Below are positions 19,390-28,436 of a DNA stretch of 31,778 nt, piece after piece. This stretch comes from a virus (Duplodnaviria > Heunggongvirae > Uroviricota > Caudoviricetes): the IMG/VR virus record IMGVR_UViG_2671181118_000006, one strand, 5' to 3'. The position numbers and the translations under genes were made by a program. How positions within the stretch are numbered: position 1 is the first letter of the stretch; every line of letters starts with the position of its first letter. The notes under the pieces were generated by a model that saw nothing but the letters and a program-made list of their open reading frames with translations, had not been told where the DNA came from and did no database searches.

Positions 19390-21162
19390 ATGACCATCAC
19401 CACAGACACCACTCTTTTACACGACCCGCGTCGTCAGGCGGCGCTGCTGTACTGGCAGGGGTTTTCCGTGCCGCAGATTGCCGCCATGTTGCAGATGAAA
19501 CGCCCGACGGTGCAGAGCTGGAAACAGCGCGACGGCTGGGACAGCGTTGCCCCCATCAGCCGTGTCGAAATGAGTCTGGAAGCGCGGCTGACCCAGCTCA
19601 TCATCAAACCGCAGAAAACCGGCGGTGACTTCAAGGAAATTGATCTGCTCGGACGCCAGATTGAACGACTGGCACGGGTCAACCGTTACAGTCAGACCGG
19701 CAACGAGGCAGACCTTAATCCGAACGTCGCTAACCGCAACAAAGGCGGGCGTCGCAAACCGAAAAAGAATTTTTTCAGTGACGAGGCCATCGAAAAGCTG
19801 GAGCAGATTTTCTTTGAGCAGTCTTTCGACTATCAGTTGCACTGGTATCGCGCCGGGCTTGAGCACCGCATCCGCGATATCCTGAAATCCCGCCAGATTG
19901 GCGCGACGTTTTATTTTTCCCGCGAGGCGCTGCTGCGCGCCCTGAAAACCGGCCATAACCAGATTTTTCTGTCGGCCAGTAAAACGCAGGCGTATGTGTT
20001 CCGCGAATACATCATCGCCTTTGCCCGTCTGGTTGACGTTGACCTGACCGGTGACCCGATTGTCCTGGGCAATAACGGCGCAAAACTGATTTTTCTCGGC
20101 ACCAACTCCAACACCGCACAGAGCCATAACGGTGACCTGTACGTCGACGAGATTTTCTGGATCCCGAATTTTCAGGTACTGCGTAAGGTGGCATCAGGTA
20201 TGGCCTCACAGAGTCACCTGCGCTCTACCTATTTCTCCACCCCGTCCACGCTGGCGCACGACGCCTACCCGTTCTGGTCGGGTGAACTGTTCAACCGGGG
20301 ACGCGCCAGCGCCGCCGAACGTGTGGAAATCGACGTCAGTCATAACGCCCTTGCCGGTGGGCTTCTCTGTGCGGACGGCCAGTGGCGGCAGATTGTCACC
20401 ATTGAGGACGCCCTGAAAGGTGGCTGCACGCTGTTCGACATTGAGCAGCTTAAACGCGAAAACAGCGCCGACGATTTTAAAAACCTGTTCATGTGTGAAT
20501 TTGTTGACGACAAGGCGTCGGTGTTCCCGTTCGAGGAGCTGCAACGCTGCATGGTCGACACGCTGGAAGAATGGGAAGACTATGCGCCGTTTGCCGCGAA
20601 TCCGTTCGGCTCCCGCCCGGTCTGGATTGGTTACGACCCGTCACACCGTGGCGACAGCGCCGGATGCGTGGTACTGGCACCGCCGGTAGTGGCCGGAGGC
20701 AAATTCAGAATACTTGAGCGTCACCAGTGGAAAGGCATGGACTTTGCCACCCAGGCTGAATCCATCCGCAAACTCACCGAAAAATATAACGTCGAATACA
20801 TCGGTATTGATGCCACCGGCCTCGGTGTCGGCGTGTTCCAGCTCGTGCGCTCGTTCTATCCCGCCGCGCGCGATATCCGCTACACACCGGAAATGAAAAC
20901 CGCAATGGTGCTCAAGGCAAAAGACGTTATCCGTCGTGGCTGTCTGGAATATGACGTCAGCGCCACCGACATCACCAGCTCGTTTATGGCTATCCGCAAG
21001 ACCATGACCAGCAGCGGACGCAGCGCCACCTATGAGGCCAGCCGCAGCGAGGAAGCCAGCCACGCCGACCTCGCCTGGGCGACCATGCACGCCCTGTTAA
21101 ATGAGCCACTCACCGCCGGTATCAGCACCCCGCTGACATCCACCATTCTGGAGTTTTACTGA
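19390..21162 (+). CDS. P: terminase large (ATPase) subunit P
   Basis: 590 aa from the ATG at 19390, which is preceded by GAGG; same length as P2 gpP; divergent from O. Confidence 0.9.
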   Translation: MTITTDTTLLHDPRRQAALLYWQGFSVPQIAAMLQMKRPTVQSWKQRDGWDSVAPISRVEMSLEARLTQLIIKPQKTGGDFKEIDLLGRQIERLARVNRYSQTGNEADLNPNVANRNKGGRRKPKKNFFSDEAIEKLEQIFFEQSFDYQLHWYRAGLEHRIRDILKSRQIGATFYFSREALLRALKTGHNQIFLSASKTQAYVFREYIIAFARLVDVDLTGDPIVLGNNGAKLIFLGTNSNTAQSHNGDLYVDEIFWIPNFQVLRKVASGMASQSHLRSTYFSTPSTLAHDAYPFWSGELFNRGRASAAERVEIDVSHNALAGGLLCADGQWRQIVTIEDALKGGCTLFDIEQLKRENSADDFKNLFMCEFVDDKASVFPFEELQRCMVDTLEEWEDYAPFAANPFGSRPVWIGYDPSHRGDSAGCVVLAPPVVAGGKFRILERHQWKGMDFATQAESIRKLTEKYNVEYIGIDATGLGVGVFQLVRSFYPAARDIRYTPEMKTAMVLKAKDVIRRGCLEYDVSATDITSSFMAIRKTMTSSGRSATYEASRSEEASHADLAWATMHALLNEPLTAGISTPLTSTILEFY

Positions 21163-22196
21163 TGAGCAAGAAAAAAGGGAAAACACCGCAACCTGCGGCA
21201 AAAAAAATGACTGCCAGCGCCCCGAAAATGGAGGCATTCACCTTTGGTGAGCCGGTGCCGGTACTCGACCGCCGTGACATTCTGGATTACGTCGAGTGCA
21301 TCAGTAACGACAGATGGTATGAGCCACCGGTCAGCTTTACCGGTCTGGCAAAAAGCCTGCGTGCTGCCGTACATCACAGCTCACCGATTTACGTCAAACG
21401 CAATATTCTGGCTTCAACGTTTATTCCGCACCCGTGGCTTTCCCAGCAGGATTTCAGCCGCTTTGTGCTGGATTTTCTGGTGTTCGGTAATGCGTTTCTG
21501 GAAAAGCGATACAGCACCACCGGTAAGGTCATCAGACTGGAAACCTCACCGGCAAAATATACCCGCCGTGGCGTGGAGGAGGATGTTTACTGGTGGGTGC
21601 CGTCCTTCAACGAGCCGACAGCCTTCGCGCCCGGCTCCGTGTTTCATCTGCTGGAGCCGGATATTAATCAGGAGCTGTACGGCCTGCCGGAATATCTCAG
21701 CGCCCTTAACTCTGCCTGGCTGAATGAGTCGGCCACGCTGTTTCGCCGCAAGTATTACGAAAACGGCGCACATGCCGGATACATCATGTACGTCACTGAT
21801 GCCGTACAGGATCGCAACGATATCGAAATGCTCCGCGAAAACATGGTGAAGTCGAAAGGCCGCAACAACTTTAAAAATCTGTTTCTCTATGCCCCACAGG
21901 GGAAAGCCGACGGCATTAAAATTATCCCGCTCAGTGAAGTCGCAACGAAGGACGATTTTTTTAATATCAAAAAAGCCAGCGCCACTGATCTGCTGGACGC
22001 GCACCGCATCCCCTTTCAGTTGATGGGCGGCAAGCCGGAGAACGTCGGGTCGCTGGGTGATATTGAGAAAGTGGCAAAAGTCTTTGTCCGCAATGAGCTT
22101 ATCCCGCTACAGGACAGGATCCGCGAGATAAACGGCTGGCTCGGTCAGGAGGTCATCCGCTTTAAAAACTACTCACTGGACACTGACAACGGCTGA
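21162..22196 (+). CDS. Q: portal protein Q
   Basis: 344 aa, same length as P2 gpQ; start overlaps the P stop (TGATG). Confidence 0.9.
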   Translation: MSKKKGKTPQPAAKKMTASAPKMEAFTFGEPVPVLDRRDILDYVECISNDRWYEPPVSFTGLAKSLRAAVHHSSPIYVKRNILASTFIPHPWLSQQDFSRFVLDFLVFGNAFLEKRYSTTGKVIRLETSPAKYTRRGVEEDVYWWVPSFNEPTAFAPGSVFHLLEPDINQELYGLPEYLSALNSAWLNESATLFRRKYYENGAHAGYIMYVTDAVQDRNDIEMLRENMVKSKGRNNFKNLFLYAPQGKADGIKIIPLSEVATKDDFFNIKKASATDLLDAHRIPFQLMGGKPENVGSLGDIEKVAKVFVRNELIPLQDRIREINGWLGQEVIRFKNYSLDTDNG

Positions 22197-22201
22197 ACAT
22201 C

Positions 22202-22223
22202 GCCGCCTGCGGGCGGCTTTTTT
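22202..22223 (+). terminator. rho-independent terminator of the P-Q operon
   Basis: GCCGCC-TGCG-GGCGGC hairpin followed by TTTTTT, immediately after the Q stop. Confidence 0.8.
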
Positions 22224-22358
22224 ACAACCCGTCATCACGGCCTCACACGCTCACCACCGCACAAAACACCCCGCAGACACACCAACGCCCCGGCAGGCCG
22301 ACTAAATGCCATCACGACGCGCTCAGACGCAAAAAAACTGTCACTACCACGCCGTTAC

Positions 22359-22383
22359 GTTGGCCACATAAAATGTGGCCAAC
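22359..22383. repeat. perfect 10-bp-stem inverted repeat at the cargo boundary (putative terminator or insertion scar)
   Basis: GTTGGCCACA-taaaa-TGTGGCCAAC, 6 nt downstream of the stop of the 22389-23375 ORF on the minus strand; no adjacent T-run. Confidence 0.5.
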
Positions 22384-22388
22384 TCCAG

Positions 22389-23375
22389 TTATAATAATTT
22401 GTCCAGCCTAGCTGAAACAATACCTAGAACAACTGTTGAAACTATATTTACCACCACTCTTAAAATACTCTTCTTTCGCTTCTTACTATATTCATCATAC
22501 AACCTCTCATCACCCTTATTTAATACAATGTACGATGCTGGAGTATAACCATCAATTAATCTCTCTAGGCCTTCACCTAAATGCTCCGCTAACAATGGGA
22601 TAATAGAAAACGCACCAAGAAAGAGCATTAAAAATTTTACTAACCTTTCTTTATCACCAATATCAATATATTCACCAACATTGTACAGTGCATAACTTAA
22701 AATCAATATAGAAAAAGAAAACCGCATAATCAGTGGGATTAAATACGATATCCTTTGAGCTTGCTGTATCAATGGTATTTTGTTTGTAACTCTTTGACAT
22801 CCTTCAACCCATTCTTTAAATGCTTCGATAAAACCTCTAGCCACTACATAATCAGCATATTCAACAACTATTTCTGCTGAACTGGTGAGCATGAATGCAA
22901 CAAAACGCCCCCTAATGAAAGGTGGTGCATCTTCTTCCATTTCTTTCTGCATAGCAATTCTTGATGCTAATTTAACAGTAACTTCATAGTGGTTAGGTAA
23001 TGATGCCCCTGTCGATAAAATTGCAAAGTTATATTTTAAAATTACACTAATTGTTGGACTACTTCCCGCACTACTCGACATTGCAAACTTATCAAAAGAG
23101 GTAAACTGTTCCTTTCTATCTTTTGAATGTAAAATAGTTACCGTTTCATTTTTCGATATAATATTATGAACATCACACAATTGATTTATTTTTTGATGAA
23201 CGCTTCTTATCTCATCGATATTTATAAGTAAATTCTCAGAGGTTCTCTGCCTTATTGTTTCTGTTGTTCCCGTTATATGTTGATAAATTTGCTGATAAAT
23301 ACGAATGCTAGTATTAATATCCCGAGAAGCAGGTAACCCACTATTAATCCCATTATTTTTTTTCATTTGACTCAT
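22389..23375 (-). CDS. hypothetical protein with a soluble N-terminal domain and three C-terminal transmembrane helices (cargo; candidate phage-defence or exclusion effector)
   Basis: Roughly 328-codon ORF in AT-rich DNA, where long ORFs are unlikely by chance. ATG candidates at 23373-23375 and 23364-23366; the track start at 23378 is a TTG. Hydrophobic segments ISYLIPLIMRFSFSILILSYALY, LVKFLMLFLGAFSIIPLLA and ILRVVVNIVSTVVLGIVSA. No family recognised. Confidence 0.7.
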   Translation of the reverse strand: MSQMKKNNGINSGLPASRDINTSIRIYQQIYQHITGTTETIRQRTSENLLINIDEIRSVHQKINQLCDVHNIISKNETVTILHSKDRKEQFTSFDKFAMSSSAGSSPTISVILKYNFAILSTGASLPNHYEVTVKLASRIAMQKEMEEDAPPFIRGRFVAFMLTSSAEIVVEYADYVVARGFIEAFKEWVEGCQRVTNKIPLIQQAQRISYLIPLIMRFSFSILILSYALYNVGEYIDIGDKERLVKFLMLFLGAFSIIPLLAEHLGEGLERLIDGYTPASYIVLNKGDERLYDEYSKKRKKSILRVVVNIVSTVVLGIVSARLDKLL

Positions 23376-23637
23376 CAATTATAACACTCATTTTATTTCC
23401 TATAAAAACTTAACCAGCAAATTAAACAAAAAGAACACAAGGTTATTATTTAGCGTGCAACAACACGATTGCACAACCAAATGCCACGTGTACGAATCTA
23501 ACCATTCTCTTATATTAAATCAAGTCAATACAACCTAATAGACACATTTTTTTATCGCAGTTATACACTTGGTTAACAATATGCGGATAGTTACTCAAAT
23601 CAAATTACATATATGACAAAATGAACAATTGCGCGCA

Positions 23638-23656
23638 GTGCTTTCCCCGCCTCGCC
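23638..23656. other. cos cohesive-end site (P2-type 19-nt)
   Basis: GTGCTTTCCCCGCCTCGCC is the reverse complement of GGCGAGGCGGGGAAAGCAC, which I recall as the P2 19-nt cohesive end. Position between Q and the A-side accessory region is as expected. Confidence 0.75.
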
Positions 23657-23862
23657 CGCCCGCTTCATGGGGCGGTTTTAATGCAGTTGCATGACCACTC
23701 AACTAGCGCGCCAGTCCTGATGTCGCCAGGCAGTTATTGTTCTCTGACTTGCGTGCGCTTCGATGCAGAGTAATGCACTTCCTGAATTGCTCGCATTCGC
23801 ATCGTTATCATGATAGAAAACAGGTAGTTATTTGTGCGCAACTTAAGAAGAAATCACTAATT

Positions 23863-25407
23863 ATGAAAAAGATTTATGAATTAACTACTGGTAGAGCGCT
23901 TAAGTATTTTCTGCAGCATGATTCATACACTACTCTGGAGCTACCCAGTTATGTCGATTTTTCTTCCTTGCTTGAAGAAATCAACTCCGCGATAGATGAA
24001 GGTAAAATCAACTTCCAACCTGACTCCAAGTCATTGATGGGGAAGAATATAAATTACGAGGTTTTAGTCAGCAAAGATGGCTTATATAGCTGGCGACGAA
24101 TAACACTAATTAATCCTCTGTACTACGTGTATTTTTGTAAACTTATTACATCCTCTTCCAACTGGAATGCTATAAGGAATAAATTTAGAGAGTTTGAGTC
24201 TAATGATCTTTTTTTATGCTCAAGTATCCCAGTGAGCAAAAAGAACACCTCAAACGTAGCTGCATCTGTTTTAAACTGGTGGGAAGATTTTGAACAAAAA
24301 AGTCTTTCATTGGCTCTTGAGTATGAGTTCATGTTCAGCACAGATATTTCAAACTTCTACCCTTCTATTTACACTCATAGCTTTGAATGGGTATTCATCT
24401 CAAAAGAAGAGGCCAAAAAGAAAGAAAATAACAATAACCCAGGACGATTGATTGACACTCATATCCAGATGATGATGAGTAATCAGACAAACGGAATACC
24501 ATTGGGTAGTACGTTGATGGATACATTTGCCGAATTAATTTTAGGCGAAATTGATTTACAGCTAAGAAAAAAAACCGAAGAGCAAAAAATAACGGATTAC
24601 AAAGTAGTTCGCTACAGAGATGATTATCGAATATTTTCAAGCAGTAAAGATGATTTGGACAAAATCTCAAAGTGTTTGGTTGAGGTCTTAGGTGAGTTTG
24701 GGCTTGATTTAAACTCAAGAAAAACAGAACTACATGACGACATCATTCTTCACTCCCTTAAATCAGCAAAAAAAGAATATATTATAGAAGGGTCGTTCAA
24801 CTCCCTACAGAAAATGTTGTATGCAATATATTTATTTTCTTTAAAACATCAAAACTCCAAAATTACAGTCAGATATTTAAATGATTTCTTGCGGAAATTA
24901 TTTAGGAAGAAAAAGATCACAAATAGTGGGCATCAACTAGATGCAATGCTTGGAATTATTTCAAGCATCATGGCTAAAAACCCAACCACCTACCCAGTGG
25001 GAATGGCTATTTTCGCAAAACTCTTGACCTTCCTTTATGACGACGATGAACTCAAATTTGGCAAGTTACAACAACTTCATTGTAAACTAGGTAAACAACC
25101 AAATACTGAAATGTTAGATATTTGGTTTCAACGAGTTCAAGGGAAGATACACACACAATGGGAAGGCGATTACAAAACAGCCCTATGTCAACGCATAAAT
25201 GATGAACTCAAGGAAAAAAAAACATTTACCATTGATGGCCTGTGGGATGTAGAGTGGATTCCGGGTTCAGCCAAAAATAAAAACAAACAGAAAATACTAT
25301 CAATTTTGAAAAAAACAAAAATTGTGGATTTAGATGCATTCGAAGAAATGGATACTGATATTACACCAGAAGAAGTGAACTTATTCGACAAGGAACACAG
25401 CGCTTAA
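23863..25407 (+). CDS. reverse transcriptase, Abi-P2-like (UG/Abi class) defence-associated RT
   Basis: 514 aa from the ATG at 23863 (the track ORF begins further upstream at 23737). RT motifs readable in the translation: FSTDISNFYPSIYTHSF (motif A-like), NGIPLGSTLMDTFAELILGEID (motif B-like), VVRYRDDYRIFSS (Y-x-DD catalytic motif C), GLDLNSRKTEL (motif D/E-like). The C-terminal 200 aa or so is helical and unassigned. AT-rich; occupies the tin/old slot between cos and A. Confidence 0.85.
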   Translation: MKKIYELTTGRALKYFLQHDSYTTLELPSYVDFSSLLEEINSAIDEGKINFQPDSKSLMGKNINYEVLVSKDGLYSWRRITLINPLYYVYFCKLITSSSNWNAIRNKFREFESNDLFLCSSIPVSKKNTSNVAASVLNWWEDFEQKSLSLALEYEFMFSTDISNFYPSIYTHSFEWVFISKEEAKKKENNNNPGRLIDTHIQMMMSNQTNGIPLGSTLMDTFAELILGEIDLQLRKKTEEQKITDYKVVRYRDDYRIFSSSKDDLDKISKCLVEVLGEFGLDLNSRKTELHDDIILHSLKSAKKEYIIEGSFNSLQKMLYAIYLFSLKHQNSKITVRYLNDFLRKLFRKKKITNSGHQLDAMLGIISSIMAKNPTTYPVGMAIFAKLLTFLYDDDELKFGKLQQLHCKLGKQPNTEMLDIWFQRVQGKIHTQWEGDYKTALCQRINDELKEKKTFTIDGLWDVEWIPGSAKNKNKQKILSILKKTKIVDLDAFEEMDTDITPEEVNLFDKEHSA

Positions 25408-25508
25408 CGAAACAATGTTATTAACTCAACATGACTTCGTTAAGCATTAAAGCGAACAGTCATATGAAATTTCGACATCCCTAACGCCTCGCAAGCTCGT
25501 TGTTCAAC

Positions 25509-25551
25509 CCCGCCAGCACTGAAAGCGAGTTTCAGCGTCGGCGGGATTTTC
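25509..25551 (+). terminator. putative intrinsic terminator downstream of the RT
   Basis: Imperfect hairpin CCCGCC..CTGAAA-gcgag-TTTCAG..GGCGGG followed by ATTTTCT. Confidence 0.45.
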
Positions 25552-25572
25552 TATGGTCAACGTGGTGACAGA

Positions 25573-25833
25573 TTATGGGCACGCGTGAAGGTAGAAATAT
25601 GGACGGTTGGGATTATTTATTTCTCCCATACGGCTGCAGTTATCACTGACGATCTCAGTCCCTCCGACCAACTCGTAGAGGGTCAGATTCTCTTTGACCA
25701 TAATTTGTAAACAATAGCCATCAGCCGGAGACTCTTGCACGAGTACAATGGCGGAACCGGACGCATAGCTAGTAATGTATGCATTAGTCATAATGACATG
25801 CTTCCAAAGCAAGATTGCCACGCAGTTCCGCAT
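25573..25833 (-). CDS. small hypothetical protein downstream of A (possibly orf91-like)
   Basis: 86-aa ORF (or 72 aa from the internal ATG at 25789-25791), co-directional with and just downstream of A; no strong RBS. Weak call. Confidence 0.35.
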   Translation of the reverse strand: MRNCVAILLWKHVIMTNAYITSYASGSAIVLVQESPADGYCLQIMVKENLTLYELVGGTEIVSDNCSRMGEINNPNRPYFYLHACP

Positions 25834-25894
25834 GATCCATCAGTTGCTGATACCAACCATCAAGTGGAAGCAAAATCAACCATTTCAATCATTT

Positions 25895-28171
25895 TTATAT
25901 GTTTGTTGAGAATCCCGGCCACTCATCAGCAGCCAGATACGTGAATTGTTTCCCGTCATAATTTACGGTTGCCCCACGCGCCAGCGCCTCAAGCTCCCAT
26001 CGCTGGGGCAAGATTCCATTCTGAGCAAGGTCAACGCGGATACGGGTGATTTGCAATCGTTCCGACCGGCTCAGTCTGGCCGATGGTGCAATTTCATGTG
26101 GTTTTAACGGGCTTCCGTTTCTTTGCTGACGGTTTGGCGTTCTCAGCCCGTGTTTTAATGCGCCCCTGAGTGCCTTCACGACCTCCGGCTCATTCCATTC
26201 GATAATACCGTCATCAACCAGATTAAGCACTGCTGCGGCGTGCTCAGAAGGTGTGGGAGCCGGTAACGAAGTATCACCACCGGTGAGCTTTCCACAGTTA
26301 TTGACAGGACTCCGAGGCGCGGCGATGCCGCTTTTTAAAGTTAAAGGCTCCACGACCGGAACTTTCGGAACAATGCGCCAGTCCGTCGTTCTGGTGATAT
26401 GAATATGACGCGCGCCGAGATGCGGCGCGTAAATGCCGACCACTCTCTCGACTTCTTCCTCGTACTCGTTAACTTCATCCGACGGGCTACGGGCGACTCT
26501 GACAGTCTGGCAATCGCGCGGAACATTTGCCCCACCCTGCGCACTGATATACAACGCAAAATCGCCACTGTCTGCGGCAGCGCGTGCAGCCTCGACGCGT
26601 TCGTCAAACTCATCAGCAATGCTGACGCCGCGAGGCAATTTGCGTAGTTCACGGTAAGCCCCCATTGTCGGCAGACCAACCGTTTTAAATTGCGGGATGC
26701 GCCACGTTGACGCCCATGCAGTAACAGCCGCGGCAGTATCTTTCAGAGGTCTGCCGGTATCGTTATCGAGCTGACCATCCAGTGCATAGCCGTCGATATT
26801 TTTTGAAATGTATTTCGCGATATATCCCGCAGCACCGCCCCGGTTAAGGTGCTTTGCCTGAAAACGGTTTCGCGCGGCTCCTCTTTCGTCACCATCCTCT
26901 TTGAGCGCATAGCGACGCATGATTTCGATAATCTGATTACGCTGGCGTGGATTACAAAAAAGCATCATATGCCAGTGCGGCGTTCCGTCGTGGTGTGGCT
27001 CGACGACACGCAAACCGTAGACCTGTAAATCATTATCCTTGAATGCCGTGCGCATCAGGCTCCAGATGCGGCAGAGATAACGCTGCGCATCCTTTGGATT
27101 AAATGCCTCATCGTTCCAGCCGTGATTTAGCTGGACGGTTTTACTTTCGCCTTTTCCGACCTGACGTGTCGGGTGATACTTTGACGGCGCGGTCAGCGTG
27201 ATAAACATCCCCACATCACCCTCTGCGGCGGCGTAACGCTCAATACCGGCAATGGTGTTCATCAGCTCCATCCGGCGAATTTCAGGATTAGAAATACTTC
27301 CCATCACCTTACTGATAAGGTCGATGCGCTCGCCGGTTTCCCTGTTTTCAAGGTCACACGATTTAAGAAATTCCAGATTTGCCTGGCGGCGCGCACGCAC
27401 ATCACGAATGGCATGTTTACTGGCATAAGGAGAACGGTCTTTATTGACCTCCCCGACAGCAATCAGTAACGCTTCATGCCAGCGCATACGTTGACCTTTA
27501 AGCTGATGAGTCCACCAGTCATCGTTAAACAGGCGGGCAATGGCAGAATATGCCTGCCTCGTGGTCATCTGTCCTTTACGGTATTTTTTCCAGTAAAGCG
27601 GGGAAATATTGAAAGCACGTGCAGCGCCAGCAACATGACCATACAGGTGAGCCTGCGCCTCATCCGTAAACAGCGATTCTTTTTCACCATGCGCATCAAC
27701 CCATGCATCGCAGAGTTCCTCATACATCATGAAAAGCTGCGATGAGATACGGGCGGCAAACTTTTTCAGCTCCTTGTCATTCATTCCAGGCAGGCGCGCA
27801 TAGTGGCCACGCTCTGCCAAAAACAGCAACGACGCGTCGGTGTTCATTTCATGGCGCTGATTCACGCGCTCAATGCGCGGCCATAAACGACGCTGAAAAG
27901 TGGATGTGAGGAAATAAAACCCGTGCACCGGGCTTTTATTGCGCCGGATGTAGTCATAGCGTGAAGTAAACAGCGAACGCAAAAAGTAAGGCAGGCGGTT
28001 AATCGTGGATAAAACACCTTGCACCTGACGCATCTCGTCACGTGTAAGGGGTCTTTCGCGCCCGACGGCCTCGCGTGGCGCGTTCCATGCATAAGCACCG
28101 GTAAACGTCTTACCGGTGCCTGCGGCAAATGCTGACGGAGGGACAAAACGCCCGGAGACTTTAACGGCCAT
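25895..28171 (-). CDS. A: replication initiation endonuclease A (rolling-circle Rep)
   Basis: About 758 aa from the ATG at 28169-28171 (MAVKVSGRFVPPSAFAAGTGK...); the track ORF has a TTG-initiated extension. Contains HxH (PHWHMM) and a conserved Tyr region (YIAKYISKN). Size and position match P2 gpA. Confidence 0.9.
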   Translation of the reverse strand: MAVKVSGRFVPPSAFAAGTGKTFTGAYAWNAPREAVGRERPLTRDEMRQVQGVLSTINRLPYFLRSLFTSRYDYIRRNKSPVHGFYFLTSTFQRRLWPRIERVNQRHEMNTDASLLFLAERGHYARLPGMNDKELKKFAARISSQLFMMYEELCDAWVDAHGEKESLFTDEAQAHLYGHVAGAARAFNISPLYWKKYRKGQMTTRQAYSAIARLFNDDWWTHQLKGQRMRWHEALLIAVGEVNKDRSPYASKHAIRDVRARRQANLEFLKSCDLENRETGERIDLISKVMGSISNPEIRRMELMNTIAGIERYAAAEGDVGMFITLTAPSKYHPTRQVGKGESKTVQLNHGWNDEAFNPKDAQRYLCRIWSLMRTAFKDNDLQVYGLRVVEPHHDGTPHWHMMLFCNPRQRNQIIEIMRRYALKEDGDERGAARNRFQAKHLNRGGAAGYIAKYISKNIDGYALDGQLDNDTGRPLKDTAAAVTAWASTWRIPQFKTVGLPTMGAYRELRKLPRGVSIADEFDERVEAARAAADSGDFALYISAQGGANVPRDCQTVRVARSPSDEVNEYEEEVERVVGIYAPHLGARHIHITRTTDWRIVPKVPVVEPLTLKSGIAAPRSPVNNCGKLTGGDTSLPAPTPSEHAAAVLNLVDDGIIEWNEPEVVKALRGALKHGLRTPNRQQRNGSPLKPHEIAPSARLSRSERLQITRIRVDLAQNGILPQRWELEALARGATVNYDGKQFTYLAADEWPGFSTNI

Positions 28172-28436
28172 GTGAGCCAAAAGCCTCTGAACAACGCTTG
28201 CTGAGTTGCTCAACCTGCGCGTTTAAATCAGCAAAAGATTTTGCGCTTCCGGTCATAATATCGTGATGCATCAGGCCGGAAACGAGCTGGCTTAATTTCG
28301 GGTAATAACCAACCACCGCCAGCCATTCCTGACCGGCGTTTTTACCGCTTTCAGCTCTCTTTTTCTCGTGGAGAATAAACTGAAAGCTGTCACTGGTAAC
28401 GACATAACGTTCGCCAATTTCAATACGAATACTCAT
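28161..28436 (-). CDS. early-operon hypothetical protein (orf83-like)
   Basis: 91 aa; tightly packed between the zinc-finger ORF and A, overlapping the A start. Confidence 0.7.
   Translation of the reverse strand: MSIRIEIGERYVVTSDSFQFILHEKKRAESGKNAGQEWLAVVGYYPKLSQLVSGLMHHDIMTGSAKSFADLNAQVEQLSKRCSEAFGSHGR

Follow-up and report, generated by a model that had tools for sequence, protein, structure and literature searches.

Abi-P2 and Related Reverse Transcriptases

Phage P2 carries two exclusion genes next to cos, old and tin, of which Old is an ATPase/nuclease whereas Tin blocks T-even phages. The interval between gpA and the portal gene in which these genes lie is also reported as a defence hotspot of P2 phages, and AbiP2 as a P2-specific cargo (bioRxiv 10.64898/2026.02.27.708500). 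The closest described relative with a solved structure is the Abi-P2 of prophage P2-EC30 (orf570; PDB 7R08; Figiel et al. 2022, PMC9508834), which combines an RT-like fingers/palm lobe with a C-terminal α-solenoid lobe in the position of the thumb, a channel being formed by both lobes together (PMC9508834). DNA synthesis by this protein requires no template, the products measuring about 40 nt or exceeding 100 nt, and its Y61F variant makes no DNA, a result indicating protein priming (PMC9508834). According to Odegrip et al. (2006), as cited in later work (PMC9508834; PMC8632793), orf570 confers resistance to T5 that is lost without the YRDD region; it is, in the account of PMC9508834, the only Abi-P2 allele reported to have been tested against this phage. 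A second allele, orf544 of P2-EC58, comes from the same study (Odegrip et al. 2006, J Bacteriol 188:1643, as cited in PMC9508834).

AbiK of Lactococcus and the systems DRT4 and DRT6 (UG15 and UG12, respectively) resemble Abi-P2 in joining an RT-like domain to an α-helical repeat domain, in their protein-primed and template-independent synthesis of ssDNA and in their assembly into oligomeric rings (PMC9508834; PMC12783706). DRT4 and DRT6 additionally act on T5, as Abi-P2 does (PMC12783706). The priming residue, however, lies elsewhere (Tyr44 in AbiK, Tyr125 in DRT4), and AbiK is typically plasmid-borne (PMC9226505), whereas the gene considered here is prophage cargo.

We have compared with these systems a gene at positions 23863-25407 (+ strand) of the window, by which we mean the whole stretch of 31,778 nucleotides in IMG/VR record IMGVR_UViG_2671181118_000006. 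It almost certainly encodes a stand-alone Abi-P2, that is a class 1 UG/Abi RT-like DNA polymerase carried as anti-phage cargo in the cos-to-A slot of a P2-like Escherichia coli prophage. Both the gene and its family are already known: the allele was published in 2006, a close homologue has been studied by crystallography and biochemistry, and the family is present in defence-system databases. For the RT itself, the value of the analysis lies in confirmation and clean annotation, to which it adds a corrected start with the corresponding residue numbering, an account of the 200 bp upstream and the description of a neighbouring cargo gene.

The Gene Occupies the old/tin Slot Beside cos

The left edge of the cargo slot is formed by a 19-mer at 23638-23656, the exact reverse complement (0 mismatches) of the P2 cohesive-end sequence GGCGAGGCGGGGAAAGCAC, which aligns to cosR of the P2 reference. 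Since cos ends at 23656, the beginning of the region highlighted in the first-pass annotation, 23657, is the first base past it. The portal gene Q lies at 21162-22196 on the + strand and gene A at 25895-28213 on the - strand, and two AT-rich genes flank cos between them. The order in the P2 reference is A, orf91, tin, old, cosR and the window gene thus occupies the old/tin slot; the cos 19-mer, the coordinates of A and the P2 map all agree with the earlier placement of the RT in this slot, between cos and the 3' end of A. The likeness to old and tin extends to orientation (transcription runs away from cos, toward A), to a promoter lying equally distant from cos and to a role in the exclusion of other phages by the prophage, even if the Old and Tin proteins are unrelated to Abi-P2.

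The open frame runs from 23737 to 25407 on the + strand and encodes, from the ATG at 23863, 514 amino acids followed by a TAA stop ending at 25407; none of 2000 shuffles of the same base composition yielded an open frame of at least 514 codons. At 35.1%, the GC content of the gene is well below that of Q (52.8%), of A (53.0%) and of the window as a whole (51.7%).

Between 23631 and 25900 the DNA identity of the window is 99.2% with GenBank AM157368, the Bacteriophage P2-EC58 record annotated "putative reverse transcriptase, ORF544", and 99.1% with phage pro147, while the protein shares 99.0% identity with the P2-EC58 product and 74.7% with the P2-EC30 product. P2-EC58 essentially carries the same gene within the same flanks, cos on one side and ORF85 with the end of A on the other. 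The two differ in that the deposited CDS of P2-EC58 begins 30 codons earlier, at the counterpart of ATG 23773, whereas the comparative evidence discussed below points to 23863, and in that the window, unlike P2-EC58, also has a 329-aa gene on the Q side of cos. P2-EC30 has a gene of the same family and architecture in the same slot beside cos, with the priming tyrosine and YRDD retained, but its RT part shares 79% identity and its helical domain 69% with the window allele, and loci of the EC30 type do not have the segment of about 477 bp that carries ORF85. Of 5426 complete E. coli genomes, 64 carry the cassette (23700-25894) with an identity of at least 99%; the copies of strains HKUOPY1 and TW10573 match it at 100%, and in the former strain PGAP annotates the identical 514-aa CDS.

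Family Assignment and Domain Architecture

The best family model for the protein is PADLOC AbiP2 (E 9.8e-160, 530.6 bits), which aligns residues 1-512 with positions 4-487 of its 489, and the best solved structure is chain A of PDB 7R08 (E 1.8e-256), in which residues 32-540 are matched by residues 1-508 of the query; the match to phrog_12132 spans all 514 residues. These results, together with the identity to P2-EC58, substantiate the proposal of an Abi-P2-like defence RT, for which a profile search had been advised: AbiP2 comes out best, and over the full length.

The RT-like fingers and palm correspond approximately to residues 1-300 (23863-24762), followed by the α-solenoid helical domain in residues 301-514 or thereabouts (24763-25404). 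Pfam RVT_1 covers residues 144-291 with 40.9 bits against a cut-off of 29.6. In the translation, motif A reads FSTDISNFY (FSTDISNFYPSIYTH), with the codon of Asp161 at 24343-24345, motif B reads QTNGIPLG (QTNGIPLGSTLMD), and the catalytic motif C, YRDD, occupies residues 251-254 (24613-24624). The predicted priming tyrosine of the fingers loop, Tyr30 (codon at 23950-23952), is the counterpart of Tyr61 in 7R08, whose residues are numbered as in the P2-EC30 construct. Tyr30, Asp161, QTNGIPLG and YRDD are invariant in an alignment of 10 alleles with 75-100% identity. The earlier recognition of an AT-rich RT frame of 514 aa is therefore upheld by the base composition, motifs A, B and C and RVT_1, but the accompanying view that the C-terminal part of about 200 aa has no assignable function is outdated, because this part can be matched residue by residue to the helical domain of 7R08 (residues 301-508, without large gaps). 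The gene combines the profile, the YRDD motifs, the priming tyrosine, the helical domain, the location between cos and A and the single-gene organization of Abi-P2.

Start Codon and Residue Numbering

Comparison of alleles establishes ATG 23863 as the start, a codon that the first-pass annotation had weighed against in-frame starts upstream. A 14-nt indel that breaks the frame separates the P2-EC30 and window allele types upstream of this position, and the N-terminal "extensions" of the two types are unrelated in sequence. In eight diverged alleles (L017-L023 and L028) the conserved MKK start is preceded, at a distance of 4-12 codons, by an in-frame stop; six of these have no start codon between the stop and MKK, the other two (L017 and L023) having only an ATG 3 or 5 codons upstream of MKK. 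In the crystal, residues 1-31 are invisible and the chain begins at residue 32 (PMC9508834), a methionine that aligns to Met1 of the window protein. A Shine-Dalgarno-like AAGAAG lies at 23845-23850, 12 nt before the ATG, and aligns to GGAGGA in L022 and GGAAGA in L018. Moreover, the mapped starts of the P2 old-tin transcript align downstream of both TTG 23737 and ATG 23773. A longer reading frame from either of these codons is thus rejected in view of the indel, the upstream stops, the invisible residues and the P2 transcript starts.

The deposited records of P2-EC58 and P2-EC30 start 30-31 codons upstream, and the crystallized construct includes those residues. With the start at 23863, published residue numbers shift by 31, so that Tyr61 becomes Tyr30 and Tyr282 of 7R08 becomes Tyr251, the tyrosine of YRDD. 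The ORF544 and ORF570 records and the 7R08 construct would hence contain about 30 surplus N-terminal residues, and the annotation is cleaned accordingly.

Flanking Regions: Promoter and Terminator

The first part of the region between cos and the gene, 23656-23694, is a flank of cos that belongs to the conserved phage backbone rather than to the RT cassette, as it is present in P2 and in many P2-like phages with other cargo. It contains a GC hairpin (23656-23675, detected in the terminator scan), a run of T and the palindrome ATGCAGTTGCAT at 23681-23692. The following segment, 23695-23785, is not conserved between allele types. Next comes the probable promoter of the RT gene (23790-23829, + strand), with a -35-like CTCGCA at 23790-23795 and an extended -10, TGaTAGAAA, at 23811-23819. 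The whole block, CTCGCA-N14-ATGATA(A/G)AAA (23790-23819), is conserved among Abi-P2 cassettes whose upstream sequences cannot be aligned elsewhere. P2 shows TTGAAT-N17-TAAAAA at the same position, and the old-tin mRNA starts of the P2 record (33424/33426) align to window positions 23827/23829, just past TGaTAGAAA. A generic sigma-70 scan found no + strand promoter before the RT gene, having missed this site because its -10 does not have the final T. We infer from the alignment that the RT promoter sits where P2 has its old promoter, transcripts starting at 23827/23829 with a leader that measures some 35 nt; the transcript of the gene would then leave out most of the 200 bp. The 200 bp upstream can thus be read as cos flank plus an old-type promoter, which agrees with Abi-P2 needing no template RNA.

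Beyond the stop codon, a hairpin (stem at 25509-25545) followed by AUUUUCU (the element ending at 25552) probably ends the RT transcript as an intrinsic terminator and, read from the opposite strand, the A operon as well. Its energy is -23.6 kcal/mol on the + strand; on the - strand it reaches -29.8 kcal/mol, with a z-score of -3.27. An 85-nt block that includes it (25481-25567) recurs in other P2-like prophages directly past the last gene downstream of A, and the hairpin is probably a two-way terminator that parts the cargo from the A operon. Past the hairpin, toward A, lies ORF85 (25573-25833, - strand; phrog_13272, unknown function).

Alternative Explanations

Several other models recognize the protein at a distance, with 158.5 bits for Drt6, 152.3 for UG14, 143.8 for Drt4, 105.7 for AbiK and 42.3 for AbiA, to which NCBIfam Drt4 adds a match of 122.5 bits. 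We regard it as extremely improbable that the gene belongs to one of these class 1 UG/Abi groups (DRT4/UG15, DRT6/UG12, UG14 or AbiK) instead of Abi-P2, given that AbiP2 scores 530.6 bits over the full length, that the NCBIfam Drt4 match is far below its cut-off of 450 and that the solved DRT4/UG15 chains match residues 136-290 only (E 3.5e-09 to 5.4e-07), whereas 7R08 covers the whole protein. Equally negligible is the chance that it represents a group II intron maturase/RT or a decayed, inactive relic. A weak match to group_II_RT_mat (TIGR04416) does exist, and alleles truncated to 462 aa (L015 and L016) or 288 aa (L028) occur in some related prophages; yet the 41.9 bits of that match fall well short of the cut-off of 300, group II intron RNA is absent from the Rfam results, and the window copy is full length, retains all catalytic and priming residues and agrees base for base over 2195 bp with copies in other genomes. 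For Drt4, Drt3b, group II intron maturase and retron St85 RT, the NCBIfam scores all remain far under the respective cut-offs.

The non-coding gap of 206 bp upstream of the RT could also suggest a retron-type or class 2 DRT-type enzyme working with a structured ncRNA between cos and the start, considering that some UG/Abi groups (UG2, UG28 and UG3+UG8) require an adjacent ncRNA (PMC9226505). Such an arrangement is hardly conceivable here. The retron_St85_RT model gives 35.1 bits against a cut-off of 235, and a search of Rfam at E ≤ 10 over 22150-26000 returned only two chance matches elsewhere and no intron family. The minimum free energy of 23652-23880 has a z-score of +0.40, 126 of 200 shuffles folding at least as well, while RNAalifold on six cos-adjacent alleles returns a covariation term of +1.23, that is a penalty, with short helices that are mostly invariant. 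Outside the cos flank, the promoter block and the Shine-Dalgarno sequence the region is unalignable between allele types, and the P2 transcript starts leave a leader of just about 35 nt. Purified Abi-P2 of P2-EC30, moreover, was free of nucleic acid and polymerized without template (PMC9508834). A structured RNA in 23657-23862, raised as a possibility in the first-pass annotation together with fold and covariation checks, accordingly finds no support in Rfam, the fold z-score, covariation or the unalignable sequence. That annotation would have yielded to a failure of RT profiles or to a retron or group II intron RT with its RNA; we find instead that RT profiles match, that retron and group II scores lie below their cut-offs and that no associated RNA appears. 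Very unlikely too, if slightly less so, is that the RT and the divergent 329-aa membrane protein encoded across cos, as its effector, make up a two-gene system after the fashion of retron Ec48. Retron Ec48 pairs its RT with an effector having two transmembrane segments. The comparison draws on the AT-rich composition of both neighbours (33.0% GC for the 329-aa gene and 35.1% for the RT), on the long hydrophobic C-terminal helices of the 329-aa protein and on phage pro147, which has the same Abi-P2 but, in the Q-cos gap, retron Ec48 with its RT and membrane effector. However, cos separates the two genes and their distributions are independent: among the 64 genomes with the RT cassette, HKUOPY1 alone also has the 329-aa ORF. 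Nine other genomes carry the 329-aa ORF; in the three of them that were examined, it faces across cos a DUF7380 protein in one case, a HEPN protein in another and no annotated gene in the third. The P2-EC30 Abi-P2, furthermore, polymerizes DNA alone in vitro (PMC9508834). Functional coupling of the RT with the 329-aa ORF is consequently rejected on distribution, and the independent assortment of Q-cos and cos-A contents favours a stand-alone Abi-P2.

Proposed Mechanism of Abi-P2 Defence

The biochemistry and the exclusion of T5 belong to P2-EC30, and their extension to the window allele is based on homology. With 75% identity and all key residues conserved, the window allele would be expected to act as the P2-EC30 protein does, namely as a protein-primed, template-independent polymerase that blocks T5. 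The RT gene would be transcribed away from cos from the promoter at the old position, with termination at the 25509-25545 hairpin. Its product may form trimers and possibly hexamers, as the P2-EC30 homologue does, and by the same homology would use the hydroxyl group of its Tyr30 as the primer for DNA synthesis, extending ssDNA independently of any template, while the α-solenoid in the place of the thumb would form the channel for the nascent strand.

How ssDNA synthesis is linked to defence is considered unresolved for Abi RTs (PMC12783706). The route proposed for DRT4 and DRT6 involves constitutive ssDNA that is restrained by a host exonuclease and stabilized by a DNA-binding protein of T5, leading to abortive infection (PMC12783706). 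Both systems are activated by ORF55, a T5 protein that binds ssDNA (PMC12783706). By analogy, a comparable accumulation of ssDNA is the most likely route for Abi-P2, an analogy drawn solely from class membership and the shared T5 phenotype. The enzyme would then make ssDNA constitutively, a host 3'-5' exonuclease would hold it low, and the ssDNA-binding protein of an infecting phage would let it build up to levels that are toxic or that sequester SSB, so that the infection aborts. Since the two allele types share only 69% identity in the helical domain, they could differ in the range of phages affected.

A Second Cargo Gene on the Q Side of cos

The 329-aa ORF (22389-23378, - strand) lies between Q and cos within an insert of about 1.3 kb (22338-23630) that is missing from most P2-like genomes. 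The insert is present in 10 of the 5426 E. coli genomes and was located in the Q-cos gap in all four that were examined for its position. Cargo thus appears to be exchanged independently on both sides of cos, with Abi-P2 on the A side and either the 329-aa protein or retron Ec48 on the Q side. The predicted membrane-anchored protein has no match in PADLOC, NCBIfam or PHROGs and only one sub-threshold match in Pfam. Its homologues, about 331 aa long and with sharply conserved motifs, form at least 197 clusters in Enterobacterales, Burkholderiales, Shewanella and others.

As independently exchanged cargo beside cos, the 329-aa family is a reasonable candidate for defence screening, and its member in the window could be a single-gene, membrane-anchored exclusion factor. 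The combined proposal that the EC58-type allele senses a different phage trigger and that the 329-aa protein constitutes a new single-gene anti-phage or exclusion system is tentative, and we consider it rather doubtful as a whole. Homologues with 42-45% identity are found in the A-portal hotspot of P2-like prophages of Yersinia and Klebsiella, and a 55%-identical homologue in Pantoea adjoins a remnant of a portal gene; elsewhere, the family member is a lone gene.

Cargo Genes on the Two Sides of cos

Comparison of the window with phage pro147 shows that cargo is exchanged independently to the left and right of cos. In the window, the gap separating cos from the portal gene Q holds an insert of approximately 1.3 kb (22338-23630) that is absent from most P2-like genomes and houses an AT-rich ORF of 329 aa on the minus strand (22389-23378, 33% GC). 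In the matching gap of pro147 (L003 288-2182) lies instead retron Ec48, consisting of its reverse transcriptase (RT) and a membrane effector, with the same Abi-P2 as the window across cos.

The 329-aa ORF gave no usable match in PADLOC, Pfam, NCBIfam or PHROGs, and belongs to a conserved family of about 331 aa represented in at least 197 clusters. Homologues with 42-45% identity are found in P2-like prophages of Yersinia and Klebsiella, where they occupy the hotspot between the replication gene A and the portal gene, and a Pantoea homologue with 55% identity adjoins a portal-gene remnant. The predicted fold of the protein combines an N-terminal α/β domain with three long C-terminal helices. 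We consider this ORF a candidate for new single-gene defence or exclusion cargo.

Borders of the Cargo Slot

On the other side of cos, the interval extending to A, namely the place of old and tin in P2, includes a block of 85 nt (25481-25567) with a strong hairpin (25509-25545) and a U-tract. Copies with 81-92% identity are present in other P2-like prophages directly past the last gene downstream of A, and the block recurs regardless of which cargo is present; it is probably a two-way terminator that delimits the cargo slot on its inner side. ORF85/86 (25573-25833, 46% GC) shares the minus strand with A, follows it downstream and matches phrog_13272 (unknown function); it is found in loci of the P2-EC58 type but is missing from those of the P2-EC30 type. 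Its place is taken in P2 by orf91 (DUF3850) and in other prophages by DinI-like genes.

Towards cos, the RT promoter is preceded by two motifs: the palindrome ATGCAGTTGCAT (23681-23692) and the repeat ATGCA-N5-ATGCAC (23763-23778), the latter being kept also upstream of P2 old despite the different genes located there. These motifs may be part of cos recognition or constitute a common operator.

Variation and Numbering of Abi-P2

Compared with window 23773-23862, both the GenBank AM157368 and AM157365 annotations (ORF544 and ORF570, respectively) and the crystallised construct of PDB 7R08 carry 30-31 added N-terminal residues, which are invisible in the 7R08 structure. Because these residues are probably not translated in vivo, published Abi-P2 residue numbers run 31 ahead of those in the native protein. 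Shortened alleles of 462 aa and 288 aa, present in three IMG/VR P2-like contigs (L015, L016 and L028), suggest that Abi-P2 cargo occasionally decays.
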